Assembly: GCA_015233115.1 (NCBI GenBank)
Contig: JADFYJ010000011.1
Span: forward strand, 17,824-81,823
Length of the DNA: 64,000 bases
Direction of reading: 5' to 3'
Origin: Candidatus Omnitrophota bacterium
Lineage (GTDB): Bacteria > Omnitrophota > Gorgyraeia > Zapsychrales > Zapsychraceae
Below are positions 9,745-45,784 of this stretch, piece after piece (position 1 is the stretch's first letter; every line of letters begins with the position of its first letter). The notes beneath the pieces were generated by a model, which was not told where the DNA came from, searched no databases, and saw nothing but the letters and a program-made list of their open reading frames with translations. The position numbers were made by a program, and so were the translations under genes.

Positions 9745-12700
9745 ATGAGTAAATATAGGACTTCAAACAGTCTATTTGTGCGTAAATTAATAAGTATATT
9801 TCTTATATTTACCTTTATATTCTCTTCAATAAATATTCCGCAATATGCTTATGCTCAAACCGCGCCGCTCATGCCCGTTCCCGGAACTATGGTCGGGTTA
9901 ACTCCGCCGTTTAATCCGCCGGTTCTTAAAGGTATTAAAGTCTATCCAGACAACCCGCTTCGATTTGATTTCATTTTGGATAACGGCTTCGCCCTTATCC
10001 AAAATGACCCTGAGCGACCAGCGGGAGTCGAAGGGTTACAACAAGAAGCGAAAAAGCTTATCAAATATTTTCTAGCCTCACTGACTGTTCCCGAAAACGA
10101 TTTATGGGTCAACCTGTCACCGTACGAAAAAGGCCGCATTGTCCCCAAAGAGTTCGGCCAAACCGAAATGGGCCGGGATCTCTTGGCGCAAGATTATCTT
10201 TTGAAACAAATCACCGCGTCCCTAATGTATCCCGAAAATGAAATCGGCCGAGAATTTTGGGATAAGATATACAAAAAACTGTATTCCTCTCCCCTTCGGG
10301 GAGAGGGAAGGGTGAGGGGTTTAGATATTCCTATCGATACGTTCAATAAGGTTTGGATCGTCCCAGAAAAAGCCGTAGTCTTTGAAAATGGTTCGACTGG
10401 CTCACCATGGAACGCAGCTTATGTCGTTGAAAGTAAATTAAAAGTCATGCTCGAATCAGATTATCTTGCCGCGTCGAAAAATATTGCGTCCTCGTTCGTA
10501 GGGGAGGGTCCCCGCCCCTCCCGCATACAAGAATCCGCCAAACAAATCATCCGCGAAGTCATTATTCCCGCGATCGAAAAAGAAGTGAATACCGGTAAAA
10601 ACTTTGCCCAGCTCCGTCAAGTCTACAACTCTTTGATCCTTGCTGCCTGGTACAAAAAGAAAATCAAAGAAAGCTTATTAAGCAAAATTTATGTCGATAA
10701 AAACAAAATTACCGGCGTAAACATTGATGATCCTAAAGCTGCGGAAAAAATCTGGGCGCAGTACGTCGAGTCATTTAAAAAAGGCGTTTATAACTACATT
10801 AAAGAAGAATACGATCCAAATACACAGCAAATCATTCCGAAAAAATATTTTTCCGGCGGGTTTGATGCCGCTCAATTATTTGGCAACAAAATAAATTCTG
10901 CCCTAACAATAACGAAAGTATTGCCTTCCAATAAAGCAAATGAAGAGAAGCAGCGTAATAGTGTGGTTTCAGTCAATATGGATCCGGTTAATTTTTGGGG
11001 TAAGATTCAAAAACGACTAACTCCTTTCATATTTGCCGCTTCGTTGTTGACTACATCTTACAGCGCGCTTGGAGTTCAATTTTTTAATCATGAACTAGAA
11101 GGGCATGGTAAAGAGACATCAATTGCTTTAGTGCAAAAAGGTGACAGCTTCATTTCCATTGCCCAAGCCATATGTAAAAAAGCCAAAAAATCTTTTACTG
11201 AAGAGCAGATCAAAAGAGTAGCCGACGCCATTAAAGAGGATAATGCGAAAAATTTAAAAGGAGAAAATCTGTCTCCCGGAGAAAATTTAAACATCAATAA
11301 AGCTGAAGGATTGGTTTGGTCCATTGATCTCTTGAATAATTCCCAAATCGTGGCCACATCCAAGATTGCTATTGCAGGGAATCAGCCGATTGATGTTTAT
11401 TTCATTCGACCGGCAGATAAAAAGGAATTTAATAATTTTGTTGCGTTTGCGTCGATTGAAACCGGGCAGCTTTTTATGGATGTTGATCAGTTTGTTGAGC
11501 AATTGAATGTGTTTAAAAAAATTATAAAAAATCCCCGTTCTGTTTGGGCGAAGTTATATCAAGGGAAAAGTGATCAGTATATATTTGAACATTACATGGC
11601 GGAAATGATTTACCATGAATATGTTCACACCTTGACAACGCCTATCATCCGTTCAAAAAAATTTGATTCTCAAACAAAGGAGTTTAAGGAATACCTGCAA
11701 GATGATTCCCATGACATTTATCGGGTGGCAGAAGAAGTGTCTGCCTATTTAGCTCAAGCGTCTGTGAGCGAAGAACCGGCCATGGCATTGACGGGATTGG
11801 TAGATAAAATTGATTCGCAACAATTCGGAACAGATGATTATGCTGCGGCTGGTTTTGTTTTGATGCGCCAAATCATGACCCCATTAGGATATGAACAATA
11901 TTTATTAAACACCATGAAGCAGCAACAAGGACGGGAAATAACCGCAGACGAAAAAAAAGGTTTGCATGAAGCTTATGAATCGGGTTCGTATGCGATGAAC
12001 GAATATAGGGGTGTATTAGCAAAATTTTTGCTTCAAAATCCAAAAGATCAATTACGGCAATCAACACACGCTTCATTCAAAAATATATTCGGAATCGATT
12101 TGCCTGGCTTTACTCAATTTACAATTCCGAGACAAGTTATAGAGGATTATTCAACAAGAGGAGCAGAACATAAATTAATAGATGCTGGCGACGTTATTAA
12201 AGATCAGGCGATGATTGCGGGAAAATTAAAATCTAAAATTATTCGTGCCTTGGCGGTTTCGTTAATGGCATATTATTTTACGGGATCTGTTAAGGGTGCA
12301 GAGTTTACGGATATTTCTTTTCCTTATGGATATAAAACAACAGTGGCAAAAGCGCAGACAGGGGATACACCCGAATCAGTGGTGAGAAGATTTGTTGATT
12401 TGCAGGTTGTGGCACAGAAAAAGTATATGCCTTTAGGGGATACGGTTTGGGATGAATTTGTTAGTAAGTATGGTTTGATTGATAATTATGGAGTACTACA
12501 AGAAAAATTTATAGCGTTGAAAGATTTTAACGAGTTTAAGTCGGTTATTGGTGCAATGAATGAGGAATATGCAAAGAAAATATATGATTATTTAAAGTTA
12601 ATTCAGGAACATATCTATAAACTCAGCCCAGATGAAATTGCCCAGATAACCAGTAAAATTAGTAAAAATTTACAGAGAAAAATAGCAAACGGTAAATTTG

Positions 12701-15700
12701 TTCCAGGCGAAATTGTTGATTTGAAATCAGCAACCGAGGAGTTGCGTTTTATTTCAACGCTCAAAAGCGATGATATCGTGGGCAGCACAACTGTTACTAT
12801 CAATAAGAATCCAGTAGAAATTTATTTTGTGAATAAAGATACCGGGGTTAGGTTGGCGTATACGTCAGAAAACAGGGTGTTTATGAATTTAGGAAGTTTT
12901 CGGGCAATTCCTGGTGAAACAAAAGAGATTATAGCCGAAGCCACGAAGGAAAGTATTTCACAATTACAGGTACGAACTTTTCCGGCAGGTATTAAAGACA
13001 GTGAGATTTTCTTTTCTAAACTTAGAGAACTATTGGCTCATGAGTTTGCGCATACGTTGACTACAGCTTTAGTGGAAAGTGGCGCAGTTAAAATATACCC
13101 AGCGCCAGTTTCGGATAATGAATACATGGCAACCATGGAAGTGTCAGGGATTTTGGGTCAAATCGCGGGTAGCGACCATCCGGTTAAAACATTTGCAGAA
13201 TTCAAAGGTGCGGCACAAAGTCTTTTTTTCGAAGGCGGGCAACAATATATTATTGCTTCGCAAACGATTAGTGACCGTATGCTTGAGCTTTTGCATTTTG
13301 GTGATTATGTGCTTAAACGGGAAAATGAAAAACGCGATAAGTCAGAAAAGGAACCGTCTAAACCATTAACTGCGGATGATTTCTCGAATTTGAAGAAAGA
13401 GGCGGTTACTCAAATTATGACAGATCTTAAACAATCGGGTTATATTAATGCCGAAGGTAAAATTTTACAATGTCCTCTTTTGGGTGATGCCAGGGAATTT
13501 AAAATTAATGGTAAATATTCCGATAAAGAACGTGAAATGATTTATGACCGCTTACTGCGCTCATATGATCTTAATTCGTGGGGTGTGTCGGAGGATTTAA
13601 AAGATGGTGCTGTTTTTAAGGAGGATGCAATCGAATTTTTTCTAAAGTTAAATCCGGACGCCGTGCGTCAGGCGGCTCGCGATGTTCATAAAGCCATATT
13701 TGGCGTTGACCTGTCCACAGATCCTGTGACAATTCCTGATTTTGTGAAAGAGTATAGCATTAAGAAATATTTTCCTGCTGAAGAAACGACAAAAAGCCAT
13801 AAAGATCAAGCAATGATTGTAGGGCAATTAAAGTACAAAATTATTCGGGCCTTGGCGGTTTCGTTAATGGCATATTATTTTACGGGCGCTGTTAAGGGCG
13901 CAGAATACACAGATATTTCATTTCCTTATGGATATAAAACAACGGTAGCAAAGACTCAGCAAGGGGATACACCTGAATCAGTTGTTAAGAGGTTTATTGA
14001 TTTACAAGTGGTAGCACAAAAAAAGTTGATGCCCTTGGGAGATACGGTATGGGATGATTTCGTTAAGTATGGGTTTATTGATAATTTTGGCGTGCTTCAA
14101 GAAAAATTTTTGGCATTAAAAAATTTTGAAGATTTTAAAAAAGTTATCGGCCCAATGAAAGAGGAATATGCAAAGAAAATATATGATTACTTAAAGTTAG
14201 TTCAAGAGCATATCATTAAACTCAGCCCGGATGAAATTGCTCAATTAACAAGTAAAATTAGTAAAAATTCGGTGGTAAAAATAAAACATGGAAAATTTAG
14301 TCCTGACGAAATCGTTGATTTGAAATCCGCAACTGAGGAACTCAGTTTTATATTACAGCTTAAAAGCGACGATATTGTCGGGAGCACAACAGTTTCGATC
14401 AATAAGAAGCCGGTAGAAATTTATTTTGTGAACAAGGACACCGGTGTTCATTTGGCATATACTTCGGAAAACAGGGTCTTTATGAATTTAGGAGGTTTTC
14501 GGTCTGCGACAACTGACACAAAACAGATTATAGCTCAAGCCAAAAAAAATAGTATTAGTCAATTAGATGTACGCGCTTTTCCTGTAGGAACAACAGATAG
14601 CGACATTTTCTTTTCTAAGCTCAAAGAACTATTGGCTCATGAGTTTGCGCATACGTTGACTACAGCTTTAGTGGAAAGCGGCGCAGTTAAAATATACCCA
14701 GCGCCAGTTTCGGATAATGAATACATGGCAACCATGGAAGTGTCAGGGATTTTGGGTCAAATCGCGGGAAGCGACCATCCGGTTAAAACATTTGCAGAAT
14801 TCAAAGGTGCGGCACAAAGTCTTTTTTTCGAAGGCGGACAGCAATATATTATTGCGTCACGCACGATTAGTGAGAGGATGCTTGAATTGTTGCATTTTGA
14901 TGAGTATGTGCTAAAACGCGAACACGAAAAACAAGATAAGGTGAAAAAGGAGCCGTCGAAACCATTGAAAGCGGATGATTTTTTTGGTTTTGAAAAAGAG
15001 GCCGTCCCGAAAATTATGGCGGATCTTCAAGGTATGGGGTATATCGATAATAAAGGAAATATTTTACAATGTCCGCTTTTGGGTAATGCTAAAGATTTTA
15101 AAATCAAAGGTCATTATTCTGCTGAAGAACGTGAAATGATTTATCGATATTTATTAAGGGCATTTGATCATCATATGTTAGGTGTCTTGCTGCAGTTACA
15201 AGATGGAATCGCTTCAGACGAGGATGAAGTTGAATTTTTTCTGGGTTTAAATCCGGATGCCGTGCGTCAGGCGGCTCGCGATGTTCATAAAGCCATATTT
15301 GGCGTTGACTTGCCCACGAATCCTGTGACAATTCCGGATTTTGTAAAAGAGTATAGCATTAAGAAATATTTTCCTGCTGAAGAAAAGACAAACAGCCATA
15401 AAGATCAGGCGATGACAAATGAAGAAACAGCTGCAACTAACATGAATCAAAATATCGAGCAAGAGCCTATACCAGTCTTTGGCATGTCTCCATGGCGAAG
15501 GGATAACATAAGCTTCAAACAAATTACTGATGTTGGCCGGTTGAATGCTGCAGGTGTACGAAAATTAATCGGGTATATCGATTCACTCCCTGCTCCCGAA
15601 GTTGAGCAAATCATTAAATATTATATGGCTAAGGGTTTTGGTGTTAAGGCATATAAAAACGGAGAGATTTCTATCAATGGAGGGGCGGTATTTGTTTGGG

Positions 15701-16095
15701 ATCGTGTTAATCTGCAAAAGCTGATTAATCAGAATTTAGGCATTTTGAAAGCAGCCGGAATACCCAGTGATAAGGACGGCGGGATATCTGCGGATGATTT
15801 AGCTGACTATATTGCAAAACATAACGTATCTTCTGAAAAATATCCTGAAGCCTATGCCACCGTTGGAATAGCTTTTGCTGATTCTCGTTTTAATCAGCAG
15901 GCATTGGCTTTTAATAAAGGCGGTATTGACTTGAATCCTGTAGACAAAACCTTGCAAATTCAAAGCAACGGCGATGTCATTAAATTCAACATCGACCCTG
16001 CCATGCTGGAACAGTTAAAAAATGCTTCCGGTTTTTCGCCTATCATTATCAATATTACGCCGCTGAAGGATTTAAAAATGTTTTTGGGGATATGA
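9745..16095 (+). CDS. giant secreted modular protein (2116 aa), paralogue of 40775..45784, with three HExxH modules
   Basis: The signal peptide ends in PQYAYAQ. An N-terminal domain of about 330 aa and the C-terminal 50 aa are conserved with the second giant ORF. The central part is a tandem of modules of about 535 aa each, carrying HEYVH, HEFAH and HEFAH. Confidence 0.8.
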   Translation: MSKYRTSNSLFVRKLISIFLIFTFIFSSINIPQYAYAQTAPLMPVPGTMVGLTPPFNPPVLKGIKVYPDNPLRFDFILDNGFALIQNDPERPAGVEGLQQEAKKLIKYFLASLTVPENDLWVNLSPYEKGRIVPKEFGQTEMGRDLLAQDYLLKQITASLMYPENEIGREFWDKIYKKLYSSPLRGEGRVRGLDIPIDTFNKVWIVPEKAVVFENGSTGSPWNAAYVVESKLKVMLESDYLAASKNIASSFVGEGPRPSRIQESAKQIIREVIIPAIEKEVNTGKNFAQLRQVYNSLILAAWYKKKIKESLLSKIYVDKNKITGVNIDDPKAAEKIWAQYVESFKKGVYNYIKEEYDPNTQQIIPKKYFSGGFDAAQLFGNKINSALTITKVLPSNKANEEKQRNSVVSVNMDPVNFWGKIQKRLTPFIFAASLLTTSYSALGVQFFNHELEGHGKETSIALVQKGDSFISIAQAICKKAKKSFTEEQIKRVADAIKEDNAKNLKGENLSPGENLNINKAEGLVWSIDLLNNSQIVATSKIAIAGNQPIDVYFIRPADKKEFNNFVAFASIETGQLFMDVDQFVEQLNVFKKIIKNPRSVWAKLYQGKSDQYIFEHYMAEMIYHEYVHTLTTPIIRSKKFDSQTKEFKEYLQDDSHDIYRVAEEVSAYLAQASVSEEPAMALTGLVDKIDSQQFGTDDYAAAGFVLMRQIMTPLGYEQYLLNTMKQQQGREITADEKKGLHEAYESGSYAMNEYRGVLAKFLLQNPKDQLRQSTHASFKNIFGIDLPGFTQFTIPRQVIEDYSTRGAEHKLIDAGDVIKDQAMIAGKLKSKIIRALAVSLMAYYFTGSVKGAEFTDISFPYGYKTTVAKAQTGDTPESVVRRFVDLQVVAQKKYMPLGDTVWDEFVSKYGLIDNYGVLQEKFIALKDFNEFKSVIGAMNEEYAKKIYDYLKLIQEHIYKLSPDEIAQITSKISKNLQRKIANGKFVPGEIVDLKSATEELRFISTLKSDDIVGSTTVTINKNPVEIYFVNKDTGVRLAYTSENRVFMNLGSFRAIPGETKEIIAEATKESISQLQVRTFPAGIKDSEIFFSKLRELLAHEFAHTLTTALVESGAVKIYPAPVSDNEYMATMEVSGILGQIAGSDHPVKTFAEFKGAAQSLFFEGGQQYIIASQTISDRMLELLHFGDYVLKRENEKRDKSEKEPSKPLTADDFSNLKKEAVTQIMTDLKQSGYINAEGKILQCPLLGDAREFKINGKYSDKEREMIYDRLLRSYDLNSWGVSEDLKDGAVFKEDAIEFFLKLNPDAVRQAARDVHKAIFGVDLSTDPVTIPDFVKEYSIKKYFPAEETTKSHKDQAMIVGQLKYKIIRALAVSLMAYYFTGAVKGAEYTDISFPYGYKTTVAKTQQGDTPESVVKRFIDLQVVAQKKLMPLGDTVWDDFVKYGFIDNFGVLQEKFLALKNFEDFKKVIGPMKEEYAKKIYDYLKLVQEHIIKLSPDEIAQLTSKISKNSVVKIKHGKFSPDEIVDLKSATEELSFILQLKSDDIVGSTTVSINKKPVEIYFVNKDTGVHLAYTSENRVFMNLGGFRSATTDTKQIIAQAKKNSISQLDVRAFPVGTTDSDIFFSKLKELLAHEFAHTLTTALVESGAVKIYPAPVSDNEYMATMEVSGILGQIAGSDHPVKTFAEFKGAAQSLFFEGGQQYIIASRTISERMLELLHFDEYVLKREHEKQDKVKKEPSKPLKADDFFGFEKEAVPKIMADLQGMGYIDNKGNILQCPLLGNAKDFKIKGHYSAEEREMIYRYLLRAFDHHMLGVLLQLQDGIASDEDEVEFFLGLNPDAVRQAARDVHKAIFGVDLPTNPVTIPDFVKEYSIKKYFPAEEKTNSHKDQAMTNEETAATNMNQNIEQEPIPVFGMSPWRRDNISFKQITDVGRLNAAGVRKLIGYIDSLPAPEVEQIIKYYMAKGFGVKAYKNGEISINGGAVFVWDRVNLQKLINQNLGILKAAGIPSDKDGGISADDLADYIAKHNVSSEKYPEAYATVGIAFADSRFNQQALAFNKGGIDLNPVDKTLQIQSNGDVIKFNIDPAMLEQLKNASGFSPIIINITPLKDLKMFLGI
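12037..15420 (+). repeat. intragenic tandem duplication of about 1.6 kb (two full units plus a partial third) inside the giant gene
   Basis: Units at 12037-13650 and 13651-15249 with a partial third from 15250. The segment 13026-13262 against 14626-14862 is nearly identical at nucleotide level, while the flanks are only protein-level similar. Confidence 0.8.
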
Positions 16096-16227: not shown

Positions 16228-18375
16228 ATGGAGATTAGATGGCTTTCCCCGTTTTTTCTGGGTTTGATATCAACCCTCGCCCAAATTATGCTTTTGCGTG
16301 AATTGAATGGGGTGTTTGGCGGGAATGAGATTGGATACGCGTTTGTGCTCGGGAGTTGGTTATTATGGGTGGCTCTTGGCGCTGCGGCTATTAGGTTATT
16401 AGGCTACCGAGTAAAAAATGTAAAAGTTTTACTGTTTATTGGGTTTTTGCTGTTTATTGGGTTTTTGCTGTTTGCAATCCTGATTCCTTCCTTAATTTTT
16501 TTATCCCGTTATCTTAAATTGTTTTTTAATATTCATCCCGGAGAATTAGTGGGTTTGCCGTGGATGATGGGTGTTTCTATCCTTGTGACCGCGCCGCTTA
16601 GTTTTTTAACCGGAGCGATGTTCGCGGTATGCTGTCTACCTTATAGAAAACAAAACTCGCGGAATAATGACTATGTCACTAAAATTTATTACGCTGAATC
16701 TTTAGGGTCGGCTTCAGGAGGAGCTTTATTTTCTTTTGTCATGGTATATTTCTTATCCAATTTGTGGATAGGGTTGGGGCTGGGAGCTTTGGATGCCAAA
16801 TCTAAACAAGCACAATGGTCACCCTTGAAGGTTGCGGCATATACAGATTCTTTGTACGGGCAGTTGACTCTTACTGAATCCAAGGGAGAATACAGTTTAT
16901 ATGAAAACGGTGGGCACAGTTTTACGACCGGGGATTTTTTATCGTCGGAAGAGATGACGCACTATGCCATGCTTTGGCACCCTAATCCTAAAAGAGTTTT
17001 GTTGATAGGAGGGGGAATGGGTGGGGCGTTAGAAGAGATTTTAAAATACAGATCAGCCCAAATCGACTATGTTGAGCTTGATCCAAAAATAATGAGTTTA
17101 AGCGGAGCTAATTTACCGACGCGGTATACCAAAGTTTTGAATGACCCGCGGACCCGCGTGATTAATATGGACGGACGGCGTTTTGTCAAAACCGCGCAGA
17201 TGAATGTTATGACCAAGTCTCCTTATGATGTGATCATTATTGGTGTCGGCGATCCGCATACTTTATTGCAGAACCGTTATTACACTAAAGAATTTTTTGC
17301 TGAGGCGAAACGGGTGCTTAATCAAGACGGGGTGATTAGTTTTTCCGCTCAGTCTGCGGCAGATTATCTGAGTAAGGAAAACCGTCAATCTTTACAATCG
17401 TTTTATTCCACCTTAAAAACTTCATTTAAAAATATTAAATCTTTGCCTGGAGACAGGCATATTTTTGTCGCGTCCAACCGGAATGACTTTGGGTCATGGA
17501 CAGCCGCGTTTTTTGAACAGCAGATCAAACAACGGGGGATTAATACACAATTTGTTTCTAAGGCGTATTTGCCCGCGCGGTTTGATCCATACCGTATAGC
17601 TGAAGTGGAAAAAATCTTGTCTGTTCCCGGGTGGATTAATACCGATGAAAGACCAACCGCTTTTTTATTAGATACCTCTTTGTGGGCCAGTCATTTTAAT
17701 ACTGGATTCGGTGAGTGGTTTGGCCGTCTTGCCAATATTTCTTTTCTTTTCGTTATAGGTTTTATTGTCATCTTGTTTTTGTTTTTTGCTGTTTGGTCGC
17801 GCTTCAAAAAAAATGTTGCCATGGGTACGGCAATTTTTGTAACGGGATTTTGGGGTATGGTTTATCAGATTTTGATCATTCTGGCGTTTCAAAGTATTTT
17901 CGGCTATGTATATCAGAAAATAGGTTTGATCATTGCGTTATTTATGCTTGGATTAGCCGGAGGAAGTTGGATAGCACAAAAACAGTCCCATAATAATGAT
18001 CAAAAGAGGATTCAGAAAATATTCAACAGTTCACAAGTTTGGGGCATGTTTTATTGTTTGTTTTTACCATTTATTTTTTTAGTGTTTCGTGATACTGTGT
18101 TGAAAGGTTTTCAAGTGGATATTTTGTTCTTCGTATTTATGAGTTTGCCTTTTTTAGCCGGAGGGATGGTCGGGTGGCAGTATGGCCTGGCTGTTATGTT
18201 ATTGGGAAATGAAAGCAGGTCTGCCACAGGTTTATACGCGTTGGATGTGCTTGGCGCAGCCTTAGGCGCTTTTTTAGCGGGGATATTTTTAGTGCCGGTT
18301 TTCGGTATCAGTCAGGTGTCATTGTTGTGCGGATTTTTGAATTTTGCTGTATTTTTAATCTTTGTGCTTTTTTAG
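16228..18375 (+). CDS. polytopic membrane protein fused to a spermidine-synthase-like (SpeE-fold) domain
   Basis: 715 aa with many TM helices. A central domain has an aminopropyltransferase-like fold (LIGGGMGGALEEI...VELDP). An internal 18-nt tandem repeat encodes LLFIGFLLFIGF. Confidence 0.6.
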   Translation: MEIRWLSPFFLGLISTLAQIMLLRELNGVFGGNEIGYAFVLGSWLLWVALGAAAIRLLGYRVKNVKVLLFIGFLLFIGFLLFAILIPSLIFLSRYLKLFFNIHPGELVGLPWMMGVSILVTAPLSFLTGAMFAVCCLPYRKQNSRNNDYVTKIYYAESLGSASGGALFSFVMVYFLSNLWIGLGLGALDAKSKQAQWSPLKVAAYTDSLYGQLTLTESKGEYSLYENGGHSFTTGDFLSSEEMTHYAMLWHPNPKRVLLIGGGMGGALEEILKYRSAQIDYVELDPKIMSLSGANLPTRYTKVLNDPRTRVINMDGRRFVKTAQMNVMTKSPYDVIIIGVGDPHTLLQNRYYTKEFFAEAKRVLNQDGVISFSAQSAADYLSKENRQSLQSFYSTLKTSFKNIKSLPGDRHIFVASNRNDFGSWTAAFFEQQIKQRGINTQFVSKAYLPARFDPYRIAEVEKILSVPGWINTDERPTAFLLDTSLWASHFNTGFGEWFGRLANISFLFVIGFIVILFLFFAVWSRFKKNVAMGTAIFVTGFWGMVYQILIILAFQSIFGYVYQKIGLIIALFMLGLAGGSWIAQKQSHNNDQKRIQKIFNSSQVWGMFYCLFLPFIFLVFRDTVLKGFQVDILFFVFMSLPFLAGGMVGWQYGLAVMLLGNESRSATGLYALDVLGAALGAFLAGIFLVPVFGISQVSLLCGFLNFAVFLIFVLF

Positions 18376-18386
18376 TTTTTTTGTTT

Positions 18387-18990: not shown

Positions 18991-18998
18991 TTTTTATT

Positions 18999-24923: not shown

Positions 24924-24946
24924 GTGTTAATATGATTGACGCTGTC

Positions 24947-34999: not shown

Positions 35000-35007
35000 T
35001 TTTCGTT

Positions 35008-37661: not shown

Positions 37662-38744
37662 ATGAAAATCATTTCGATAGCAAATCAAAAGGGTGGGTGT
37701 GGTAAAACGACCACAGCCATAAATCTCGCTTCAGCACTTAGTGATAACGGCAAAAAAGTTTTGCTGCTTGATCTGGATCCGCAGGCGCATGCTTCACTGG
37801 GTTTAAACATTCAAAGCCGCGACAGCATTTATAATGTCATTTCGAATTTGACGCCGCGAAAAATGGCGCTCCGCGATATTATTCAGAGTGTGGAGGGAAA
37901 GTTTGACATTGTTCCGTCAAATATTTTAGTGGGAACGCTTGAGCAAGAATTAGCGGATGAAATCGGCCGTGAGCTCAAACTCAAAGAAGTGTTGAATTCG
38001 ATCAAAGATGAATATGATTATATTTTAATTGACTGCGCACCGAGTTTAGGAATTCTGACGGTCAATTCGATCCGGGCGAGCGATGAACTCATTCTTCCTG
38101 TTGAGACCAGCCGTTTCGCGATGCAGGGTGTTGAGCATTTGACGGATATTGTCAATTTGATCAAGGAACGCCTTAATCATTCGGTGGATTGCAAAATTTT
38201 GATTACGATGTTTGATTCCCGCTTGCGTCATTCTTTCTCGATGTTGAAAATTTTCCGCGATAAATATCAGGAAATGTTGTTTGACACGATAGTTCACACG
38301 AATGTGAAATTAAAGGAATCCGCTGTGGTGGGGCAGACTGTTGTGACATTTGATAAATATTGCCGCGGGGCCAAAGATTATCAGGCACTGGCAAAAGAAA
38401 TGATTATGTTGTCAGGCCAGTCCAAAGGCCCGGAAGTGTTCTCCAGCCACATGCGCGAAGTGATCCGCCGTGAAATGCAGGATTGTTTGATGGCGAAATT
38501 TAGAGTTGAAGCGCCAGGGGCCAAGACCGTTTATTTAACCGGCAGTTTTAATGACTGGACGATTGACGAGAATTTTAGAATGCGCAAGGAAAACGGGGAA
38601 TGGGATATCCAAGTACCGTTAAAACCAGGCCGTTATAAATATCAATTCGTGGTTGATGGCGTATGGAAAGCAGATCCGATTAATGTTCAGCAGGAACGCA
38701 ATTCGTTCGGGGATGTCAATTCCGTCGTAGAAATAAATGGTTAG
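37662..38744 (+). CDS. ParA/MinD-family ATPase fused to a C-terminal AMPK-beta/CBM48-type glycogen-binding domain
   Basis: It has a deviant Walker A (ANQKGGCGKTTTAINLA) and a ParA fold. The C-terminal roughly 90 aa (TVYLTGSFNDWTIDENFRMRKENGEWDIQVPLKPGRYKYQFVVDGVW) match the CBM48 or E-set glycogen-binding domain. Confidence 0.75.
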   Translation: MKIISIANQKGGCGKTTTAINLASALSDNGKKVLLLDLDPQAHASLGLNIQSRDSIYNVISNLTPRKMALRDIIQSVEGKFDIVPSNILVGTLEQELADEIGRELKLKEVLNSIKDEYDYILIDCAPSLGILTVNSIRASDELILPVETSRFAMQGVEHLTDIVNLIKERLNHSVDCKILITMFDSRLRHSFSMLKIFRDKYQEMLFDTIVHTNVKLKESAVVGQTVVTFDKYCRGAKDYQALAKEMIMLSGQSKGPEVFSSHMREVIRREMQDCLMAKFRVEAPGAKTVYLTGSFNDWTIDENFRMRKENGEWDIQVPLKPGRYKYQFVVDGVWKADPINVQQERNSFGDVNSVVEING

Positions 38745-39132: not shown

Positions 39133-39489
39133 ATGTTTAGTTTTGAAAAATTGGAAGTTTGGCAGGAATCTTTAAAGTTAGTTTTAGAGATAAATAAACT
39201 GACCAAGATTTTTCCTAAAGAAGAAATGTTTGCGTTAAGTAGTCAAATGAAACGTGCTGTATTGTCGATTTCTTTAAATATTGCAGAGGGTTCGGGTCGA
39301 TCTACAAAGTTAGATTTTAAAAGGTTTGTTCAAATAGCTATCGGTTCAACTAATGAAACAGTTACGTGTTTATTTGTAGCAAAGAATCAAAAATATATTG
39401 ATGAAATTATTTTTTCACAATTTTATTTAAAATTAGAGTCAATTTCGAAGATGTTGTATTCGATGGAAAAATATTTAAAAGTCAATTAA
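39133..39489 (+). CDS. four-helix-bundle protein (23S rRNA intervening-sequence protein family, TIGR02436-like)
   Basis: 118 aa with the family-typical LEVWQESLKLVLEINKLTKIFPKEEMFALSSQMKRAVLSISLNIAEGSGR. Confidence 0.75.
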   Translation: MFSFEKLEVWQESLKLVLEINKLTKIFPKEEMFALSSQMKRAVLSISLNIAEGSGRSTKLDFKRFVQIAIGSTNETVTCLFVAKNQKYIDEIIFSQFYLKLESISKMLYSMEKYLKVN

Positions 39490-39490
39490 A

Positions 39491-39523
39491 TCAACAAAAA
39501 CCAACAACCAAAAACCATCAACC
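39491..39523. repeat. tandem heptamer array (reverse complement of 39076-39113), right arm of the inverted pair
   Basis: The sequence tcaacaaaaaccaacaaccaaaaaccatcaacc. Confidence 0.8.
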
Positions 39524-39528
39524 GATAT

Positions 39529-39713: not shown

Positions 39714-40139
39714 ATGAAAAGTCTCGACAGTAATCAAAAAAATTTGACCCGCCGTTATCTCAGCTGGTGTTACAAGACCACAAAAGAAGATCTGGACCGA
39801 ATTGACCGCTATTTTACTCAATTGACAGTCGATGATTTTATTTTAAATAAACTGCGCGGTTCCAAAGAATTCAAAGTATCTGCGAACAAAGATTTTGCAA
39901 AATTAGTTAATGATTTCGGAGATTACCGGAATAAGAAAGAAGAGCGGGTTTTAGCGCAAAAATTTGAAAATCAAGCCCGTAAAGTTTTACAGCCGCAGTA
40001 TTTATACCTCCAAAAACGCTTTCAAGCCATTGAAGCCGCGATCGTTCATTTTTTAGGCGATAAAGAATTGAAAAAGATAATTGATGCTTATGAACGAGAA
40101 ATGACGACACGGATACTTCAATCAAGGGAACACAAATAA
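39714..40139 (+). CDS. hypothetical protein
   Basis: 141 aa and helical. Its start overlaps the previous stop codon. Confidence 0.5.
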   Translation: MKSLDSNQKNLTRRYLSWCYKTTKEDLDRIDRYFTQLTVDDFILNKLRGSKEFKVSANKDFAKLVNDFGDYRNKKEERVLAQKFENQARKVLQPQYLYLQKRFQAIEAAIVHFLGDKELKKIIDAYEREMTTRILQSREHK

Positions 40140-40143
40140 AGCG

Positions 40144-40240
40144 GTTAATGGTTGTTGGTTTTTAGTTTTTGGAAAAAAATCATAAAAAATATTTTTGAAT
40201 TAACAACCAAAAACCATCAACCAAAAACTATCAACCAAAC
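40144..40240. repeat. inverted pair of TGGTTTT-family heptamer arrays (40144-40172 and 40202-40240)
   Basis: The left arm is gttaatggttgttggtttttagtttttgg. The right arm is aacaaccaaaaaccatcaaccaaaaactatcaaccaaac. Confidence 0.8.
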
Positions 40241-40245
40241 TAATT

Positions 40246-40488
40246 TTATTTCAAATGACTTCGATACGCGTCCATTTTGCGTTCCTGGGCAGCTCTGGCG
40301 CGCTCTTCTTGCCTGCGGGTTTGTTCAATAAAATCTGCTTGTTGTTTGTCTATGGTCTCGATCTTTTCGCTATTACTCTGCGGGATATCTTTAAACCCTT
40401 TACGAATTAGCTGTGACGCGCCTTGAAAAACTAAAAGCGCGACCACTACGCATATAATTGTCATGCTTAGCCATTCAAAATCTTCCAT
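40246..40488 (-). CDS. small membrane protein (hypothetical)
   Basis: 80 aa with one TM helix and a charged helical tail. Confidence 0.4.
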   Translation of the reverse strand: MEDFEWLSMTIICVVVALLVFQGASQLIRKGFKDIPQSNSEKIETIDKQQADFIEQTRRQEERARAAQERKMDAYRSHLK

Positions 40489-40662
40489 ACGTACCTCACC
40501 GGTTATTTATTATATTTAACCATTTTTTTTAACTTTAGGGAAAAATATTTTGTTTTTTGAGGATTTTTTTTCCACGCTGTATTCTCCGACGGAAATCGGG
40601 TGAGAGGTAAGGCGGTGCGGTTCATTGACAAAATGCTTTTATGTGGCACACTTTAGACACTA

Positions 40663-40720
40663 TTTTTTAAATAGTAAATAGCAAATAGCAAATAGCAAAT
40701 AGTAAATAACAAATAACAAA
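40663..40720. repeat. tandem heptamer array, AAATAGC/AAATAAC family, upstream of giant gene 2
   Basis: The sequence agtaaatagcaaatagcaaatagcaaatagtaaataacaaataacaaaacc. Confidence 0.75.
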
Positions 40721-40774
40721 ACCAAAAATCAAAAACCACATTCATATAATCATTTTTCAACGGAGATTCAACTC

Positions 40775-43700
40775 ATGTTTTCTGCAAAAAAAGTTATTTC
40801 ATCTGTTTTACTGGTCGTTATTTCTTTAACCTTTACAGTGCCGCCGCAATATGCGCAAGCACAATTTGTATTGACGCCAAGCATTCCTGCGCCAACAAGT
40901 TACGTTCCTGTTATAATCAAGGGCGTAAATCTTAATCCGCAGAATCCGCTCAAGTTCGATTTTATTATCGACCGAGGAACTTCCTCCGCTGATTTGCCTT
41001 TGGCAAATCAAAGCGCGGAGGCTGCGTTTCGTTCCGAATCGCAGAAACTAATCCGCTACTTTTTAGCTTCTTTAACTATCCCCCAAAAAGATATGTGGGT
41101 TAACCTTTCGCCGAATGAGCCAGACAGAATTGTGCCACAAACTTTTGGTAACACAGAAATGGGCCGCGATTTATTAGCGCAAGATTTTATGCTGAAACAA
41201 CTGACAGCCAGTCTCATGAGCCCGGATGGAGAAGTGGGACGAAAGTTTTGGGATAAAGTCTACGCCAAAATTTACGAAACTCCCTCTCCCCTTCGGGGAG
41301 AGGGTAGGGTGAGGGGTTTAGAAATCCCCACCGACATTTTTAACAAAGTCTGGATTGTCCCATCTAAAGCCAAAATTTATGAACATGAAAAAGGTGCGTT
41401 TATTACAGATACAGCGTTTAAAGTCATGACAGAGCGCGACTATGTCGCGCAGACACAAGACACAGGACACAAGTCACAAGAAGGACAAGATGCTGTGACC
41501 TTACAAATAGTCAAAGATGTTATCATCCCCGCTATTGAACAAGAAGTCAACCATGGCAAAACTTTTGCTAACTTGCGCCAGATCTATAATTCTCTTATCT
41601 TAGCCATGTGGTACAAAGAAAAAGTTAAGAAAAGCGTGCTCGGCCAGGCTTACTCTAATAAAGAGAAGACTTCTGGTCTAGAAGTCGCCTCAAATGAAAA
41701 ACAAAAGATCTACCAACAATATCTCGACGCTTTCCGTAAAGGCGCGAGTAATGCGATTAAAGAAGAATATGATCCCAATACCCAACAAATTGTAGCCCGG
41801 AAATATTTCTCTGGCGGTATTCAAGCAGATCAGGCACAAATTTCATTAGCTACAAAAGAGGAAATGGACGCGGCTATGAAAGCTGCCATTGCCACGGAGA
41901 ATGTTGCGACGGTAATTCAGTTTGCAGGAGCCAAAGCCCCTGACGCGGCGATGACCAGCGAAATTGTTAAAGAAATAGTTAAAAGTTTTGTTGAAGATTT
42001 TAAAAGAAAGCGTCTACCTGGTGGTTTTAATTTTTCTGTTGATGCCCAACAAAGCGGAGAAGATGTTATAGTTACAATTGAACAAACTACCAGGTCTCTG
42101 CCCCCGATACTAATTCAAGATTTTTATCACTATGTTAGCTGGTTGACAAATAAATTTACTTCTCCAATTAAATTGACACCGATGGATAGTCTGAGTGCGT
42201 ATATGCGTAAATTTAAAATTTCCGACGCGGCGATGATGTCTGTAGAGAAATACAATCGGGTGATAAAAGATGCTGAGCAAGCTTGGGGAGGAGAATTGGA
42301 GCGAGCGGATCAATTGGTTGAGTTTTTGAAAAATCGATTTAATCCTGAAAAAGCTTTGGAATCAGGAGCGATTTTTATTCCCAGGGCTGTGGTGCAGAAT
42401 GAAGCGCGGATGGGTTTAACGCCTATTGGGATTAAACTGTTAAAAAGTTTAGGCATTAAAAATGAAATTTATGTCGAAGCTGCAGCAGGAATAAATCGGC
42501 AGAGTGGCAAGGTTTATTTCACGGATGCGTATTACATAAATGCTGGAGCAAAAATTTTGTCCCATGATGAATTTTATAAACGGGCGGAACAAGCAGATAA
42601 AAAAGTTGTGGTGAGCATTAAGGAACCGCAAGAATCAGAATACAAATTATTAAAAAACGCGCTGTTATTTACTTATTTGCATTTGGCGGATAGCCCTAAG
42701 TTGACTCAGGATTTGTTAAATTTATTAGCAACTGGTGTGGCGTATGAAACTATTGCTTTTAAAACGCCAGAGGGGATAACCAGAACTCCGGTGTTAGCTC
42801 CTGCCAGTATTGCCGCTGGGTGGGTCAGCGCGGCCCGTACTGCCGCATTTTTTGGGGGGATAATTAATGACGAAAGACAGCGTATATTTGCAGAATCATT
42901 ACAGTATTATGCCACTTCTGAAAATTTCCCTCTTAACTTGCGGAAAAGTTTAGAAGGAATAACTGTAACTGTTCTGGGCGGCGGAGTTGCCGGAGAAAGC
43001 GCAGCCATAACTCTCGCGAAAATGGGAGCAAAGGTTTATATCACAGAAGTTAATCCTAAAAGGATCCTGGAGTTAGAAAAGATAATCACTTCACAAGGAT
43101 TAGGATTAGCGATTACAGTTTTAAAAAGAGATCTTTCTGTTCCACGGGTCTTTGACCAATTTCGAACAGAATTGTTAGAATCATCCGCGATAATTGGCGC
43201 CGTTCTTATCCCCGGAGCCAAGGCGCCGAAAGAGATAGATGAATCAACATATGAAGCGCTGGTCAAAGGAGGAAAATTTAAATTTTTTGCTGATATAGCG
43301 ATTGATCAAGGCGGAAATAACGTCAGAAGTGTCGCGCGTAAATATCAAGATGGCTGGCCTATGGATGAAAATCGAGTCGGACAATTTACTGTGACAAACA
43401 TGCCCAGCGTTGTTCCTTTGCAGGTTTCATTTGGTTTGGAACGAGCCAAATTAGCGTATTTAGTAGCGCTTTTGATGGGCACACCAGAAGCGGTCAAGGC
43501 GTTTCCCGAATTAGAGCAGGGTGTGAACATCCGTAATGGCCAGATCACGAATAAGCCGGTCGGGGAAGCGGTTAGAATGGATGCTGTTTCATTAAAAGAA
43601 GCAGATGAAGCAATCGCGACAGTTGATGCGGCGATGACCGTAGACCCGTTTAATCTTACTACAAAAAATGTGGCGGAATGGGATAATATTCAACGGGCGA

Positions 43701-45784
43701 TAACTGATGATGTTATTTCTAACCGGGTCATTCCTTTAATTAAAGGCAGTTATTTGAAGGGGGTAGAAAAAAATCAGTTAATAAACACAATTCAAAAACT
43801 ACGGGAAATATCTTCGGTTGATTTTGAAAAAAGCAAAAAAGATAACCCGCTTCATCACAGTTTTATAGTTCTGGATATTGTGTTACAGATTGCTTTTGGA
43901 AAAAAATTATTCTATCCGGAAATTAAAAAACTGGCAGCTTTAGCCATTCTGCATGATTTAGGTTATGGCGCGTTAGAAGAAAGCAAAGGTCGTATCAGTA
44001 GTGGTAAGATTAAACAAATGATTAAGGATTATGAGCTTCAAAAGGATAGTTTATCCAAGGAACTGAGGGAGGAAAAAGTAGCGGCAATAAAAAAAGCCAT
44101 TCAAGGTGCTATTGATGCTAGAAATGAGCATATGGAAAAAGGCGTTTTTATAGCTCAAATATTGTTAGAGAAATTTAATAAAGAAGATTCTGATCCGGAC
44201 GATAAGTTTAGTCCTGAAGATATTAAGGAGATATGTGCGTTAGTCGGGATGCATGATAATCCTGGTATTGCTAAGACGTATGAAACTGAAGAATATAAAC
44301 CATATATATCTGGATCAGCTGATAAATTACTTATTGGTAAAGATAAGCAACTAGCGCTTATTTTTCGTGAAGCAGACAGATTGTGGATGCTTTCCTATGA
44401 AGGATTAATAAAGGATTTAATGGATAGTTTGCTTAAAGGTGACAACCCTCTCTCTGTTGAGAAACAGCTCGTCAATAATATCGCTGTATTTAGTGATGAA
44501 CGAAAGTCATACGATGCGACAGGTAAAGATTATGGCAATTTTAAAGGCGATACTTTCATTAGAACTGACACAGGTTATAAAATATATAAAGATTTTATCC
44601 AGGCATGGCAAAAGATAATCAAAGATCATGCTGCTTTAGTGAAGGCTTTTAAAATCCAAAGGTTTGATTTTAATAGAGCGACCGATACTGCGATGACTGC
44701 ATTTGAAGAGAAGAGACAGACTTTTAGAGATAATTTATTAGCTATAGTGCAAAAGGGCTGTCAACCTAGTGGACTCTCCATATTGAGAAAGCAAATAACA
44801 GAGTTTATCATTTTAGAACAAGATTCGCCGTATCTCTCCAGATTTTTATATAATTTTTTAAATGATCTAGTTGAATTGCATCAGTCTTTAAATGCTGACA
44901 AAGCCGATGCTTTATATTCCTTATTTCACAATTTAAATGACTGGGTGGCAGGAATAAAAACTAGTAATGGAGCCATCTTAATAGATTATTGGGTTGAGAC
45001 AGAAAACGGAAAAATGAAATTAGAAAAAAATAAATCATGGATCTATTCTCGCGATATAGTGATTAGGGATACGATTTTCTTAATTTTGTTACGTAATTTA
45101 TTGATCAACATGCCAATGACTGCAGATTTTAAAGAAACAAGTGCCGGAAAAATTCCTGATATGAAATCGGTTCTGGAAGTCGATAAAAATTTTAAGATGC
45201 AGCTTAATTTGCTTAAAGGAATTAATCCTCAAAAATTAAGCAGTCTTAAGAAAAATTTTGCAGGAGCCATATCGTCAATAAAGGCATGGTCAGAGGTTTC
45301 TGAAGTATGGGATAACGTTGAAGGCGTTGTCTCAATCGTCTCGTCTCCTTGTCAAGAATCCGCGAAACAATTGAATGATTTTTATGCAAGCATTCCCGAC
45401 AAGGCGATGACAGTGGATGAGGAAAATAAAACAGACGGTGGTATCGACTTAAACGCCGCGCAGTTTTCCGTTGGAGTTGATAAACAGGGAAAAGGGTTTG
45501 AATATAATGTGGATCCGGCTATGTTACAGCAATTCATCAACGCGCCGGGGGTTAACGCGATTATTACCAATATTCAGCCGATTACCAATTTGCCGGTGTT
45601 TTTGGGGTTGGCAGTGGGGAAACCCCGTAAAATCGCTTATGCGATCACGGGGTCGGAAAAAACTGATCAAGTCGCGCTTCAGCTTTCTTTATTGGATGTC
45701 ATGGATAGCTTGACGATAAGGTTCGGGTATGATACATTTATTTTGAAAAATAAGGAGGTCGATTGCCAACAATTTTGGTCGTAG
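40775..45784 (+). CDS. giant secreted modular protein (1669 aa), paralogue of 9745..16095, with alanine-dehydrogenase/PNT-like and HD phosphohydrolase domains
   Basis: The signal peptide ends in PQYAQAQ. The N-terminal domain and the C-terminal 50 aa are shared with giant gene 1. The centre has AlaDH-like blocks (FTYLHLA, GVAYETIAF, LGGGVAGESAA) and HD motifs (LHDLGYG, GMHDNPG). Confidence 0.8.
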   Translation: MFSAKKVISSVLLVVISLTFTVPPQYAQAQFVLTPSIPAPTSYVPVIIKGVNLNPQNPLKFDFIIDRGTSSADLPLANQSAEAAFRSESQKLIRYFLASLTIPQKDMWVNLSPNEPDRIVPQTFGNTEMGRDLLAQDFMLKQLTASLMSPDGEVGRKFWDKVYAKIYETPSPLRGEGRVRGLEIPTDIFNKVWIVPSKAKIYEHEKGAFITDTAFKVMTERDYVAQTQDTGHKSQEGQDAVTLQIVKDVIIPAIEQEVNHGKTFANLRQIYNSLILAMWYKEKVKKSVLGQAYSNKEKTSGLEVASNEKQKIYQQYLDAFRKGASNAIKEEYDPNTQQIVARKYFSGGIQADQAQISLATKEEMDAAMKAAIATENVATVIQFAGAKAPDAAMTSEIVKEIVKSFVEDFKRKRLPGGFNFSVDAQQSGEDVIVTIEQTTRSLPPILIQDFYHYVSWLTNKFTSPIKLTPMDSLSAYMRKFKISDAAMMSVEKYNRVIKDAEQAWGGELERADQLVEFLKNRFNPEKALESGAIFIPRAVVQNEARMGLTPIGIKLLKSLGIKNEIYVEAAAGINRQSGKVYFTDAYYINAGAKILSHDEFYKRAEQADKKVVVSIKEPQESEYKLLKNALLFTYLHLADSPKLTQDLLNLLATGVAYETIAFKTPEGITRTPVLAPASIAAGWVSAARTAAFFGGIINDERQRIFAESLQYYATSENFPLNLRKSLEGITVTVLGGGVAGESAAITLAKMGAKVYITEVNPKRILELEKIITSQGLGLAITVLKRDLSVPRVFDQFRTELLESSAIIGAVLIPGAKAPKEIDESTYEALVKGGKFKFFADIAIDQGGNNVRSVARKYQDGWPMDENRVGQFTVTNMPSVVPLQVSFGLERAKLAYLVALLMGTPEAVKAFPELEQGVNIRNGQITNKPVGEAVRMDAVSLKEADEAIATVDAAMTVDPFNLTTKNVAEWDNIQRAITDDVISNRVIPLIKGSYLKGVEKNQLINTIQKLREISSVDFEKSKKDNPLHHSFIVLDIVLQIAFGKKLFYPEIKKLAALAILHDLGYGALEESKGRISSGKIKQMIKDYELQKDSLSKELREEKVAAIKKAIQGAIDARNEHMEKGVFIAQILLEKFNKEDSDPDDKFSPEDIKEICALVGMHDNPGIAKTYETEEYKPYISGSADKLLIGKDKQLALIFREADRLWMLSYEGLIKDLMDSLLKGDNPLSVEKQLVNNIAVFSDERKSYDATGKDYGNFKGDTFIRTDTGYKIYKDFIQAWQKIIKDHAALVKAFKIQRFDFNRATDTAMTAFEEKRQTFRDNLLAIVQKGCQPSGLSILRKQITEFIILEQDSPYLSRFLYNFLNDLVELHQSLNADKADALYSLFHNLNDWVAGIKTSNGAILIDYWVETENGKMKLEKNKSWIYSRDIVIRDTIFLILLRNLLINMPMTADFKETSAGKIPDMKSVLEVDKNFKMQLNLLKGINPQKLSSLKKNFAGAISSIKAWSEVSEVWDNVEGVVSIVSSPCQESAKQLNDFYASIPDKAMTVDEENKTDGGIDLNAAQFSVGVDKQGKGFEYNVDPAMLQQFINAPGVNAIITNIQPITNLPVFLGLAVGKPRKIAYAITGSEKTDQVALQLSLLDVMDSLTIRFGYDTFILKNKEVDCQQFWS
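41452..41490. repeat. in-frame heptamer array (ACACAAG family) inside giant gene 2
   Basis: The sequence cagacacaagacacaggacacaagtcacaagaaggacaag encodes TQDTGHKSQEGQD in a linker. Confidence 0.6.

Follow-up and report, generated by a model that had tools for sequence, protein, structure and literature searches.

Two paralogous genes of an Omnitrophota bacterium belong to a large family of predicted exported proteins with constant termini and variable cargo

Two genes, named G1 and G2, were analysed in a stretch of 64,000 nucleotides of a Candidatus Omnitrophota genome (assembly GCA_015233115.1, contig JADFYJ010000011.1, positions 17,824 to 81,823 of the forward strand; this whole stretch is called the window). 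Their products carry the same ends around different centres, and arrangements of this kind are known from several systems. In MARTX toxins, conserved termini enclose a variable array of effectors with short processing sites between them. Export takes place through a type I secretion system (T1SS) without a Sec signal, and the toxins have glycine-rich repeat arms and a cysteine protease domain (CPD, Peptidase_C80) activated by inositol hexakisphosphate (InsP6). In the polymorphic toxins CdiA and Rhs a VENN or DPxGL motif borders the exchangeable modules, and the families are expanded and recombining. LapA-type RTX adhesins combine an N-terminal retention module, a variable middle and a C-terminal secretion signal, and are released by a protease at a short Ala-containing motif. 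The cargo of the type IX secretion system (T9SS) consists of diverse proteins with a Sec signal peptide and a conserved C-terminal sorting element, which are exported in two steps.

The Omnitrophota themselves have giant proteins, reported as 'Archaeovorins' and 'multi-enzyme metabolic cluster' proteins (10.1101/2023.11.21.568195, West-Roberts et al. 2023; 10.64898/2026.06.07.730766, Nielsen & Lui 2026; PMC10066038; PMC12419801). In the searched parts of these papers, 48% of the giants of at least 10 kaa (thousand amino acids) are given a signal peptide (10.64898/2026.06.07.730766), and the giants resemble the family of G1 and G2 in the phylum, the signal peptide, the chains of unrelated cytoplasm-type domains (methyltransferase, HATPase_c, GNAT, HAD, HD, HEAT), the frequent internal duplication of modules, the poorly conserved centres and the suspected proteolytic processing. 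The domain repertoire of the family also agrees with the 'Module 1' content of the giants, as described in the same parts (10.64898/2026.06.07.730766). In contrast, the giants reach at least 10 kaa (or open reading frames, ORFs, over 20-30 kb) against 0.4-4 kaa in the family. They are flanked by a locus resembling a type II secretion system or type IV pilus (T2SS/T4P) and by pilZ genes, which were found neither beside G1 and G2 nor recurrently at the family loci, and they have internal transmembrane (TM) helices that are mostly missing in the family.

The analysis led to the view, to which a probability of about one half is given, that G1 and G2 are paralogues of an Omnitrophota-specific family of Sec-exported modular carriers, whose cargo would act outside the cytoplasm of the producer. 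The best reading places them at the small-size end of the signal-peptide-bearing multi-enzyme large proteins of the phylum; 'giant', as the two proteins had been called in a preliminary description made from the window, is a relative term for proteins of 2.1 and 1.7 kaa. Large exported multi-enzyme proteins of Omnitrophota as effector batteries are already in the literature. The newly recognised parts are the pair formed by a constant N-terminal domain (N-domain) and a constant C-terminal block (C-block), and the four-residue motif D-x-A-M; no mention of these three was found in the searched parts of the giant-protein papers.

Architecture of the two genes

The features of both genes are given below with their coordinates in the window (aa, amino acids).

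9745-16095, + strand: G1, 2116 aa, intact ORF; N-domain profile E=3.5e-191, C-block profile E=1.6e-29
9745-9855, + strand: Sec-type signal peptide of G1, aa 1-37, cleavage site between AYA and Q, read from the sequence
9856-10860, + strand: conserved N-domain of G1, ending in the motif PKKYFSGG (BLASTP, family consensus, AF2 model)
11017-12201, + strand: cargo module A of G1, divergent HExxH module (HEYVH at 11614-11628) with a basic and hydrophobic opening segment
12202-12213, + strand: boundary motif D-Q-A-M, G1 aa 820-823
12211-13803, + strand: cargo module B of G1, HExxH module (HEFAH at 13039-13053), whose first residue is the motif Met and which opens with a signal-peptide-like segment
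13804-13815, + strand: boundary motif D-Q-A-M, G1 aa 1354-1357
13813-15402, + strand: cargo module C of G1, tandem copy of module B (HEFAH at 14638-14652)
15403-15414, + strand: boundary motif D-Q-A-M, G1 aa 1887-1890
15412-15909, + strand: cargo module D of G1, ~165 aa, without family match
15910-16092, + strand: C-block of G1, GGIDLN...IKFNIDPAML...PIIINITP...FLGI, which is the end of the protein
40775-45784, + strand: G2, 1669 aa, intact ORF, family member
40775-40861, + strand: Sec-type signal peptide of G2, aa 1-29, cleavage site between AQA and Q, read from the sequence
40862-41818, + strand: conserved N-domain of G2, ending in the motif RKYFSGG
41867-41953, + strand: linker of G2 with two D-A-A-M motifs, aa 365-368 and 390-393
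41951-42223, + strand: cargo module 1 of G2, ~90 aa, without assigned family
42224-42235, + strand: boundary motif D-A-A-M, G2 aa 484-487
42233-43624, + strand: cargo module 2 of G2, alanine-dehydrogenase-like NAD enzyme with its catalytic motifs kept
43625-43636, + strand: boundary motif D-A-A-M, G2 aa 951-954
43634-44683, + strand: cargo module 3 of G2, HD-like (motifs LHH, LHD, MHD, EADR), weak assignment
44684-44695, + strand: boundary motif D-T-A-M, G2 aa 1304-1307
44693-45397, + strand: cargo module 4 of G2, ~235 aa, without assigned family
45398-45409, + strand: boundary motif D-K-A-M just ahead of the C-block, G2 aa 1542-1545
45428-45610, + strand: C-block of G2, GGIDLN...DPAML...AIITNIQP...FLGL
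45611-45781, + strand: atypical 57-aa tail of G2 behind the C-block, aa 1613-1669

The N-domains (~340 aa; G1 13-377, G2 5-353) were aligned by BLASTP at 50% identity (E=8e-106) and the C-blocks (~60 aa; G1 2059-2116, G2 1555-1612) at 45% identity (E=5e-12). No further pair of segments fell below E=3.9, so the centres are unrelated rather than alignable homologues. Judged by eye, the signal peptides are MSKYRTSNSLFVRKLISIFLIFTFIFSSINIPQYAYA ahead of Q in G1 and MFSAKKVISSVLLVVISLTFTVPPQYAQA ahead of Q in G2. In each, a basic n-region is followed by a hydrophobic core and then an A-x-A site, and both end in ...PQYA(Y/Q)A before the Q; A-Q closes the signal peptide in the family consensus too. 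The preliminary description, which had proposed a common signal peptide, a common N-domain and C-block and unrelated centres, was thereby borne out.

For the N-domains and C-blocks of G1 and G2, no match was obtained in Pfam, NCBIfam, PADLOC, PHROGs or the PDB sequences, in agreement with the earlier statement that the family is unannotated. The termini did not turn out to be known ordinary domains either, as no SLH domain, lipobox, T9SS C-terminal domain (CTD) or sortase signal was recognised (Pfam, NCBIfam, PDB). The AlphaFold2 (AF2) model of the N-domain, built on a 93-sequence alignment, reached a pLDDT of 78.9 and a pTM of 0.78, and is composed of long helices and three beta-hairpins, with the end motif PRKYFSGG in a low-confidence stretch. 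No fold relative was found among the solved structures (best E 0.26 with Foldseek; no match when a profile was searched in the PDB sequences). When modelled alone, the C-block was poorly defined and gave a hairpin, a short helix from DPAML and an extended PVIINIQP stretch at a pLDDT of 65 and a pTM of 0.32; to judge by the model, it probably needs a partner to fold.

The N-domains of G1 (10286-10390) and G2 (41283-41387) have in common an insertion, SPLRGEGRVRGL, that is missing in the family consensus. Over 105 nt the DNA of the two genes is 79% identical here, compared with ~50% identity for the rest of the two N-domains, and local gene conversion between G1 and G2 may have taken place here. 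The lowest GC skew of the window was observed in the 2-kb bins 10001-12000 (0.046) and 40001-42000 (-0.030), which both cover N-domain-coding regions of the two genes, against 0.09-0.24 elsewhere.

The cargo of G1 includes modules B and C, which are 80% identical and form a 1.6-kb tandem duplication of DNA. Module A is 22% identical to them (E=4e-12), with HE[YF][VA]HTLTT and a downstream EVS motif kept. The only model match for these HExxH modules was Pfam eCIS_core at a borderline 22.5 bits (cutoff 22). No homologue of module B was found in 5.8 billion proteins, and a sequence search gave no PDB relative of the HExxH modules. The three repeated HExxH modules noticed earlier are thus present, while the metalloprotease-like label that had been put on them is backed by the HExxH and EVS motifs and the borderline eCIS_core score only. 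Modules A-C can be taken as candidates for zincin-like metallopeptidases.

In G2, module 2 was matched by AlaDh_PNT_N (E=1.6e-20) and AlaDh_PNT_C (E=2.4e-29) of Pfam, which upheld the earlier assignment to an alanine-dehydrogenase/PNT-like NAD module. Comparison with solved alanine dehydrogenases (AlaDHs) including 8hyh revealed that ENR, KEP, YLHLA, D-x-AIDQGG and the GGGVxG NAD loop are kept, so that the module appears intact from its sequence. It lies below the AlaDH equivalog TIGR00518 of NCBIfam (154.4 bits, cutoff 391.85) and falls in a small separate clade, with 49-57% identity to the proteins P0268-P0271 and ~35% to the canonical enzymes. One member of this clade, P0271, is likewise fused to a C-block. 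Module 3 had been described as an HD phosphohydrolase. The motifs LHH1027, LHD1060, MHD1160 and EADR are present, but its Pfam score is below threshold (14 bits, cutoff 22), and no PDB relative was found by sequence search. The 57-aa tail of G2 compares with 0-15 aa, rarely 23, in 141 family members, and a lost stop codon or a lineage-specific extension is possible. An exact match to the G2 sequence was not on record in the public assemblies collection.

Family, cargo and the D-x-A-M motif

The N-domain search returned 1441 protein homologues. The named ones are almost all 'hypothetical protein' of Candidatus Omnitrophica/Omnitrophota, the rest being two probably mis-binned records and unclassified metagenome entries. 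A genomic scan with one genome per species gave at least 595 stretches, of which the best 80 were kept and yielded 79 loci (L001-L079). All 79 belong to metagenome-assembled genomes (MAGs) that are titled Omnitrophota/Omnitrophica or carry the binchicken label 'uncultured Planctomycetales'. Several copies per MAG were observed, with at least seven in JABDGZ01 among the best 80 stretches. The family is thus very large, restricted to Omnitrophota and uncharacterised. This search for further members, which the preliminary description had recommended, also confirmed that the centres vary; the earlier account had missed the size of the family, its restriction to a single phylum and the D-x-A-M motif.

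One gene plan was found across the loci: a signal peptide, an N-domain of ~340 aa with the nearly invariant end motif PRKYFSGG, a variable region and a C-block of ~60 aa with the consensus GGIDL(T/N)...IKF.(I/M)DPAML.QLQNAPGF.PVIINIQP...L..FLG. The cargo between N-domain and C-block measures from 0 to more than 3000 aa; in the minimal member (P0032, 438 aa) the C-block is joined straight to the N-domain. Complete members in the loci have 0.4-3.5 kaa, and four exceed the fetched 3.7 kaa. In these (L038, L027, L048 and L073), the ORF headed by the family N-domain is still open where the fetched flank ends, after more than 3,680 aa, and the contig of L038 leaves room for up to ~27 kaa, so that this N-domain may also stand at the head of true giant genes.

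In the six frames of the loci, the N-domain was found in 91 ORF segments, the C-block in 69 and both in 61 (hidden Markov models). As each segment with a C-block only is either cut at the edge of a locus or part of a split gene (just downstream of an N-domain-only segment, in another frame), the two constant parts are obligately coupled. At 50% clustering, 5018 representatives had a match to the C-block profile, and 1783 of these reached E<=1e-10. In 150/150 of the matches listed the block lies within a few residues of the C-terminus. It is followed by 0-15 polar residues, G1 stopping exactly at FLGI, and the extreme C-terminal tail shows weak residue preferences only and no motif.

Constant termini around a swappable centre, as postulated for G1 and G2, proved to be general: the N-domains of 81 members are 42-88% identical, and any cargo segment is common to only 15 of the 3240 protein pairs. 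The offsets of such common segments often differ, which shows that modules are shuffled. The cargo of 47 complete members comprised 59 Pfam families at E<=1e-5, including methyltransferases, HATPase_c, PPDK_N, the Ser/Thr kinase Pkinase, PP2C, histidine phosphatase, GNAT and AAA_17, as well as HEAT and TPR repeats. GDPD and five tandem PRTase-CE modules occur elsewhere in the family. Much of this cargo is of cytoplasmic enzyme type, as had been stated for the two window genes. These sequences show that unrelated modules make up the cargo and undergo duplication, shuffling and replacement, with rapid turnover.

The 3535-aa protein at L004 (179-10786) contains 11 D-x-A-M motifs, a GDPD module and five Pfam PRTase-CE matches, the best at 1980-2125. 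Five consecutive D-x-A-M-bounded segments (residues 1946-3455) agree with this count; coordinates are listed for the best match only.

The motif D-x-A-M was present in 11 copies in G1 and G2 together and in none of the 35 other ORFs of the window. In the 81 members it was observed 146 times, against 11.5 expected from composition (12.6-fold), at a rate of 1.30 per kaa compared with 0.13 per kaa in the neighbouring ORFs (248,000 residues). The enrichment holds specifically for D, A and M. On both sides of the motif the sequence is not conserved, and it is polar with few hydrophobic residues. The position of the motif coincides with the borders of modules. It lies at most 15 residues behind the end of AlaDh_PNT_C and PP2C matches (G2, L052) and at most 35 residues ahead of the start of GDPD, PP2C and PRTase-CE matches (L004, L052). 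In 46/81 members a copy stands no more than 60 aa behind the N-domain, and in 21/55 one stands no more than 25 aa ahead of the C-block. The median spacing is 289 aa. The duplication units of G1 and L004 extend exactly from motif to motif, and in G1 the motif stands at both ends of the repeat unit.

Two other origins of the motif were considered and rejected. One was the initiation of translation within the gene at the motif ATG; it was discarded, as no purine-rich Shine-Dalgarno-like signal was found upstream, unlike at the true gene starts of the window. The other, a by-product of a DNA recombination site, was discarded because nucleotides are not conserved outside the nine coding bases of the motif, apart from a bias to G in the codons of x and Ala. 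Together, both observations indicate that D-x-A-M is a signal at the peptide level.

At the D-x-A-M sites of G1, G2 and L001-L079, the codons for x and for Ala prefer G in their third position; the Ala codon is GCG in 44% of the sites, against a background of 26%, a typical site being GACGCGGCGATG.

The motif Met opens a signal-peptide-like segment in 8/129 cases, compared with 35/2205 of the other internal Mets (Fisher p=0.002). The eight include modules B and C of G1, and at L009 a twin-arginine signal stands at the motif Met (DRAM-SSDMGRRQFLSK). Complete embedded twin-arginine (Tat) signal peptides were seen at aa 435-470 of L009 (DRAM-SSDMGRRQFLSKLGIAIAG...) and at aa ~400 of L071.

These segments bear on the possibility that the proteins are polyprotein precursors. 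In that case, the chain would be cut between Ala and Met of D-x-A-M, or otherwise separated, before export, the modules would each begin with a Met of their own and be handled independently, some by a Sec or Tat signal of their own, and N-domain and C-block would be the first and last products. The invariant Met of the motif with its unconserved polar flanks, the excess of signal-peptide-like segments with the Tat signal at L009, and the motif-to-motif duplications of G1 and L004 fit such a scheme, and cleavage of the giant proteins is suspected in the searched part of one paper, where cut sites are lacking (10.1101/2023.11.21.568195). However, no dedicated protease was linked to the family, internal initiation is unlikely as no Shine-Dalgarno-like signal precedes the internal ATGs, and many members have few motifs or none. 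Moreover, the strict coupling and high conservation of N-domain and C-block are hard to explain for unrelated end products, and we consider precursors of this kind rather unlikely. A distinct and equally doubtful proposal is that D-x-A-M is a genuine processing code, in which the N-domain/C-block pair would escort a string of Cys-free effector modules from the cell and a protease, or the N-domain itself, would cut between Ala and Met. Such a code may be valid for the 10-150 kaa giant proteins of the phylum as well.

The constant termini, the variable centre and the short demarcation motifs between modules also recall the toxin systems, and the preliminary description had seen in the two proteins the logic of MARTX-type or polymorphic effectors. 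True membership did not hold up. In the Pfam and NCBIfam searches of G1 and G2, neither the glycine-rich A/B/C arms nor RTX nonapeptide repeats were found, the only repeat being the 1.6-kb duplication of G1, and Peptidase_C80 had no match at E<=0.1. The T1SS route of MARTX works without a Sec signal, whereas G1, G2 and the family consensus begin with a Sec-type signal peptide. CdiA and Rhs vary in a C-terminal toxin; here the variable part is internal, with several modules, and the C-terminus is the most conserved part. Known trafficking domains such as TPS, LXG, PAAR or the Rhs core were not recognised in G1 and G2 (Pfam, NCBIfam), domains typical of toxins do not make up the cargo, and clustering of neighbours at the 79 loci revealed no recurrent downstream gene that could correspond to a cognate immunity gene. 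Membership in a known MARTX-type or polymorphic-toxin system is thus extremely improbable. The LapA-type adhesins have RTX repeats, T1SS export and no Sec signal, and RTX repeats or T1SS features were not found in G1 and G2 by the same searches. With T9SS cargo, G1, G2 and the family consensus share the N-terminal Sec signal peptide. In contrast, Por_Secre_tail / TIGR04183 gave no match in the C-terminal regions of G1 and G2 (Pfam, NCBIfam), and the C-block differs from the T9SS CTD in being shorter (~60 aa) and not predicted to fold alone, in its extra obligatory N-domain and in its phylum. All four systems can be regarded as functional analogies only.

Export of the chain and site of cargo action

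Cysteine makes up 0.10% of the cargo (79,256 residues) and 0.06% of the N-domain, compared with 1.18% in the neighbours predicted to be cytoplasmic and 0.49% in those bearing a signal peptide. In 34/81 members no Cys occurs past residue 40. As the depletion, about 10-fold, covers cargo of cytoplasm-type enzyme families too, it argues that the entire chain leaves the cytoplasm, and this is the strongest evidence for export. For the AlaDH module of G2 the comparison is uninformative, since the sampled canonical enzymes are themselves Cys-free. A multi-pass membrane topology, as in the giant proteins, was rejected, with 9 internal strongly hydrophobic segments in 81 proteins.

The same data bear on a cytoplasmic location, in which the hydrophobic segment would be an uncleaved membrane anchor, and N-domain and cargo would remain with their cofactors. 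The cofactor needs of the cargo would suit such tethered proteins, and for 46% of the giant Omnitrophota proteins the predictions give TM segments only, with the bulk of the chain in the cytoplasm, according to the searched part of that work (10.64898/2026.06.07.730766). Against it, basic residues precede the hydrophobic core and A-x-A with the following Q comes after it, an orientation that puts the chain outside, and Cys is twelve-fold below the cytoplasmic neighbours and lower than in the signal-peptide-bearing ones too. Tethering is therefore very unlikely.

If the chain is exported, it could still serve the producer itself, as arrays of enzymes or scaffolds in the periplasm or at the surface, for its own coat, nutrient processing or signalling and with no delivery. 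Such envelope proteins would agree with the signal peptide, the Cys depletion, the lack of internal TM helices in most members, the HEAT and TPR scaffolds among the cargo and the resemblance of the G1 cargo to secreted zincin-type modules; for the giant relatives, a surface coat is proposed in the searched part of one study (PMC10066038). On the other hand, kinases, methyltransferases, GNAT, HATPase and the NAD-dependent dehydrogenase need cofactors not known in the periplasm or outside, and a purely self-directed role seems possible but doubtful.

The preferred view of an exported modular carrier would work as follows. The signal peptide would carry the chain over the inner membrane of a diderm cell; an outer membrane is indicated by the genes of the MlaEFD lipid system, which are present in the window. 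The C-block would be a signal for sorting or docking in a second step, as a functional analogue of the T9SS CTD or the T1SS C-signal, and the N-domain would serve as a constant handle, used by the same machinery or in attachment to envelope or target. The D-x-A-M linkers would mark module boundaries and be probable processing sites that free the cargo, namely three zincin-like modules in G1 and an alanine dehydrogenase with an HD-like module in G2. The cargo would act beyond the cytoplasm of the producer, and its most plausible target is a cell that serves these host-dependent bacteria as partner or prey, either at the surface or in the interior of that cell. The needs for NAD, ATP, S-adenosylmethionine (SAM) and acetyl-CoA make action inside such a cell the most economical reading, and from this we infer delivery into another cell. 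It agrees with the host-dependent lifestyle proposed for the Omnitrophota, as stated in the searched parts of three studies (PMC10066038; 10.1101/2023.11.21.568195; PMC12419801).

Several observations weigh against the carrier view. Cargo that depends on NAD, ATP, SAM and acetyl-CoA has no obvious supply of these cofactors outside the cytoplasm, and its activity would require entry into another cell. Clustering at the 79 loci gave no recurrent neighbours except further paralogues, so that neither secretion machinery nor a protease nor any other conserved gene travels with the family. Some members lack D-x-A-M, for example L013, L037 and L079. In a subset of modules, complete Sec- or Tat-like signals stand at the motif Met, which is an awkward topology if threading of the chain starts with its N-terminus. 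Finally, cleavage of the signal peptide, localisation and processing are predictions from sequence, the signal peptide having been judged by eye.

Surroundings of the genes and meaning of the family

The window is bacterial chromosome with a G+C content of ~40%, and its genes are of housekeeping or anaerobe type (PFOR, PPDK, PNPase, FtsK, sigma-70, riboflavin synthesis and the MlaEFD outer-membrane lipid system). The N-domain and C-block profiles detected no family member in it besides G1 and G2. These lie among housekeeping genes, and no secretion gene was found among the scanned ORFs of the window.

Around G2, two small overlapping ORFs follow on the + strand, at 45763-45999 (78 aa, overlapping the G2 stop codon) and 45941-46276 (111 aa). 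Pfam assigned the second to DUF2442 (E=1.8e-19), and the first, recognised by eye only, is presumably DUF4160-like; they look like a toxin-antitoxin-like pair. Upstream of G2, a 23S-rRNA-intervening-sequence protein (four-helix bundle with weak bAvd-like similarity) is encoded at 39133-39489 (+). A diversity-generating retroelement near G2 was rejected, since a direct-repeat search of 8000-47000 gave no template/variable repeat pair and no reverse transcriptase was present among the Pfam-scanned ORFs of the window. An unusual fusion of a ParA/MinD-type ATPase (AAA_31, CbiA) with a C-terminal glycogen-binding module (AMPK1_CBM / CBM48) is encoded at 37662-38744 (+), and might position glycogen granules.

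Several intergenic repeats were also observed. Tandem repeats with a period of 8 nt, (TTGTTACT)n, occupy 18341-18430, 33274-33339 and 34933-35006, the last adjoining tRNA-Arg(CCT) at 35007-35081, and a second type, AACCAAAAACCATCAACC-like, lies at 30251-30334, 39480-39528 and 40179-40241. A 100-nt element with a G+C-rich hairpin, CCTTGGCGCGGCGCCAAGG, occurs in two copies of 77% identity (18894-18993 and 28776-28875) and had no Rfam match at the gathering threshold. A 46-nt terminator-like repeat, formed by a hairpin GGGCGATC...GATCGCCC followed by a T-rich stretch, is found at 8195-8240, 24945-24990 and 19028-19073; two copies are 98% identical and stand downstream of unrelated genes.

The Omnitrophota are ultra-small bacteria that occur ubiquitously, have not been cultivated and apparently depend on hosts. 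How their giant proteins are exported, whether they are cut, and why cytoplasmic enzymes bear signal peptides, is a puzzle of which the present family is a tractable version at the kilobase scale. It offers three handles: a head domain without known fold relative, an obligatory C-terminal block and a four-residue boundary motif. For further work, the D-x-A-M code and the pair of N-domain and C-block deserve attention first; the constant parts together with the motif provide a sequence signature by which thousands of candidate effectors can be catalogued. The family suggests an export or delivery system not yet described, as well as sites at which the large proteins of the phylum may be cut. 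If the processing code is true, parts of the exported proteome of Omnitrophota would be encoded as bacterial polyproteins, and every module set free would begin with Met, some with a Sec or Tat signal of their own. Should the cargo reach the inside of partner cells, a whole phylum of episymbionts or predators would have its effector repertoire in this family.

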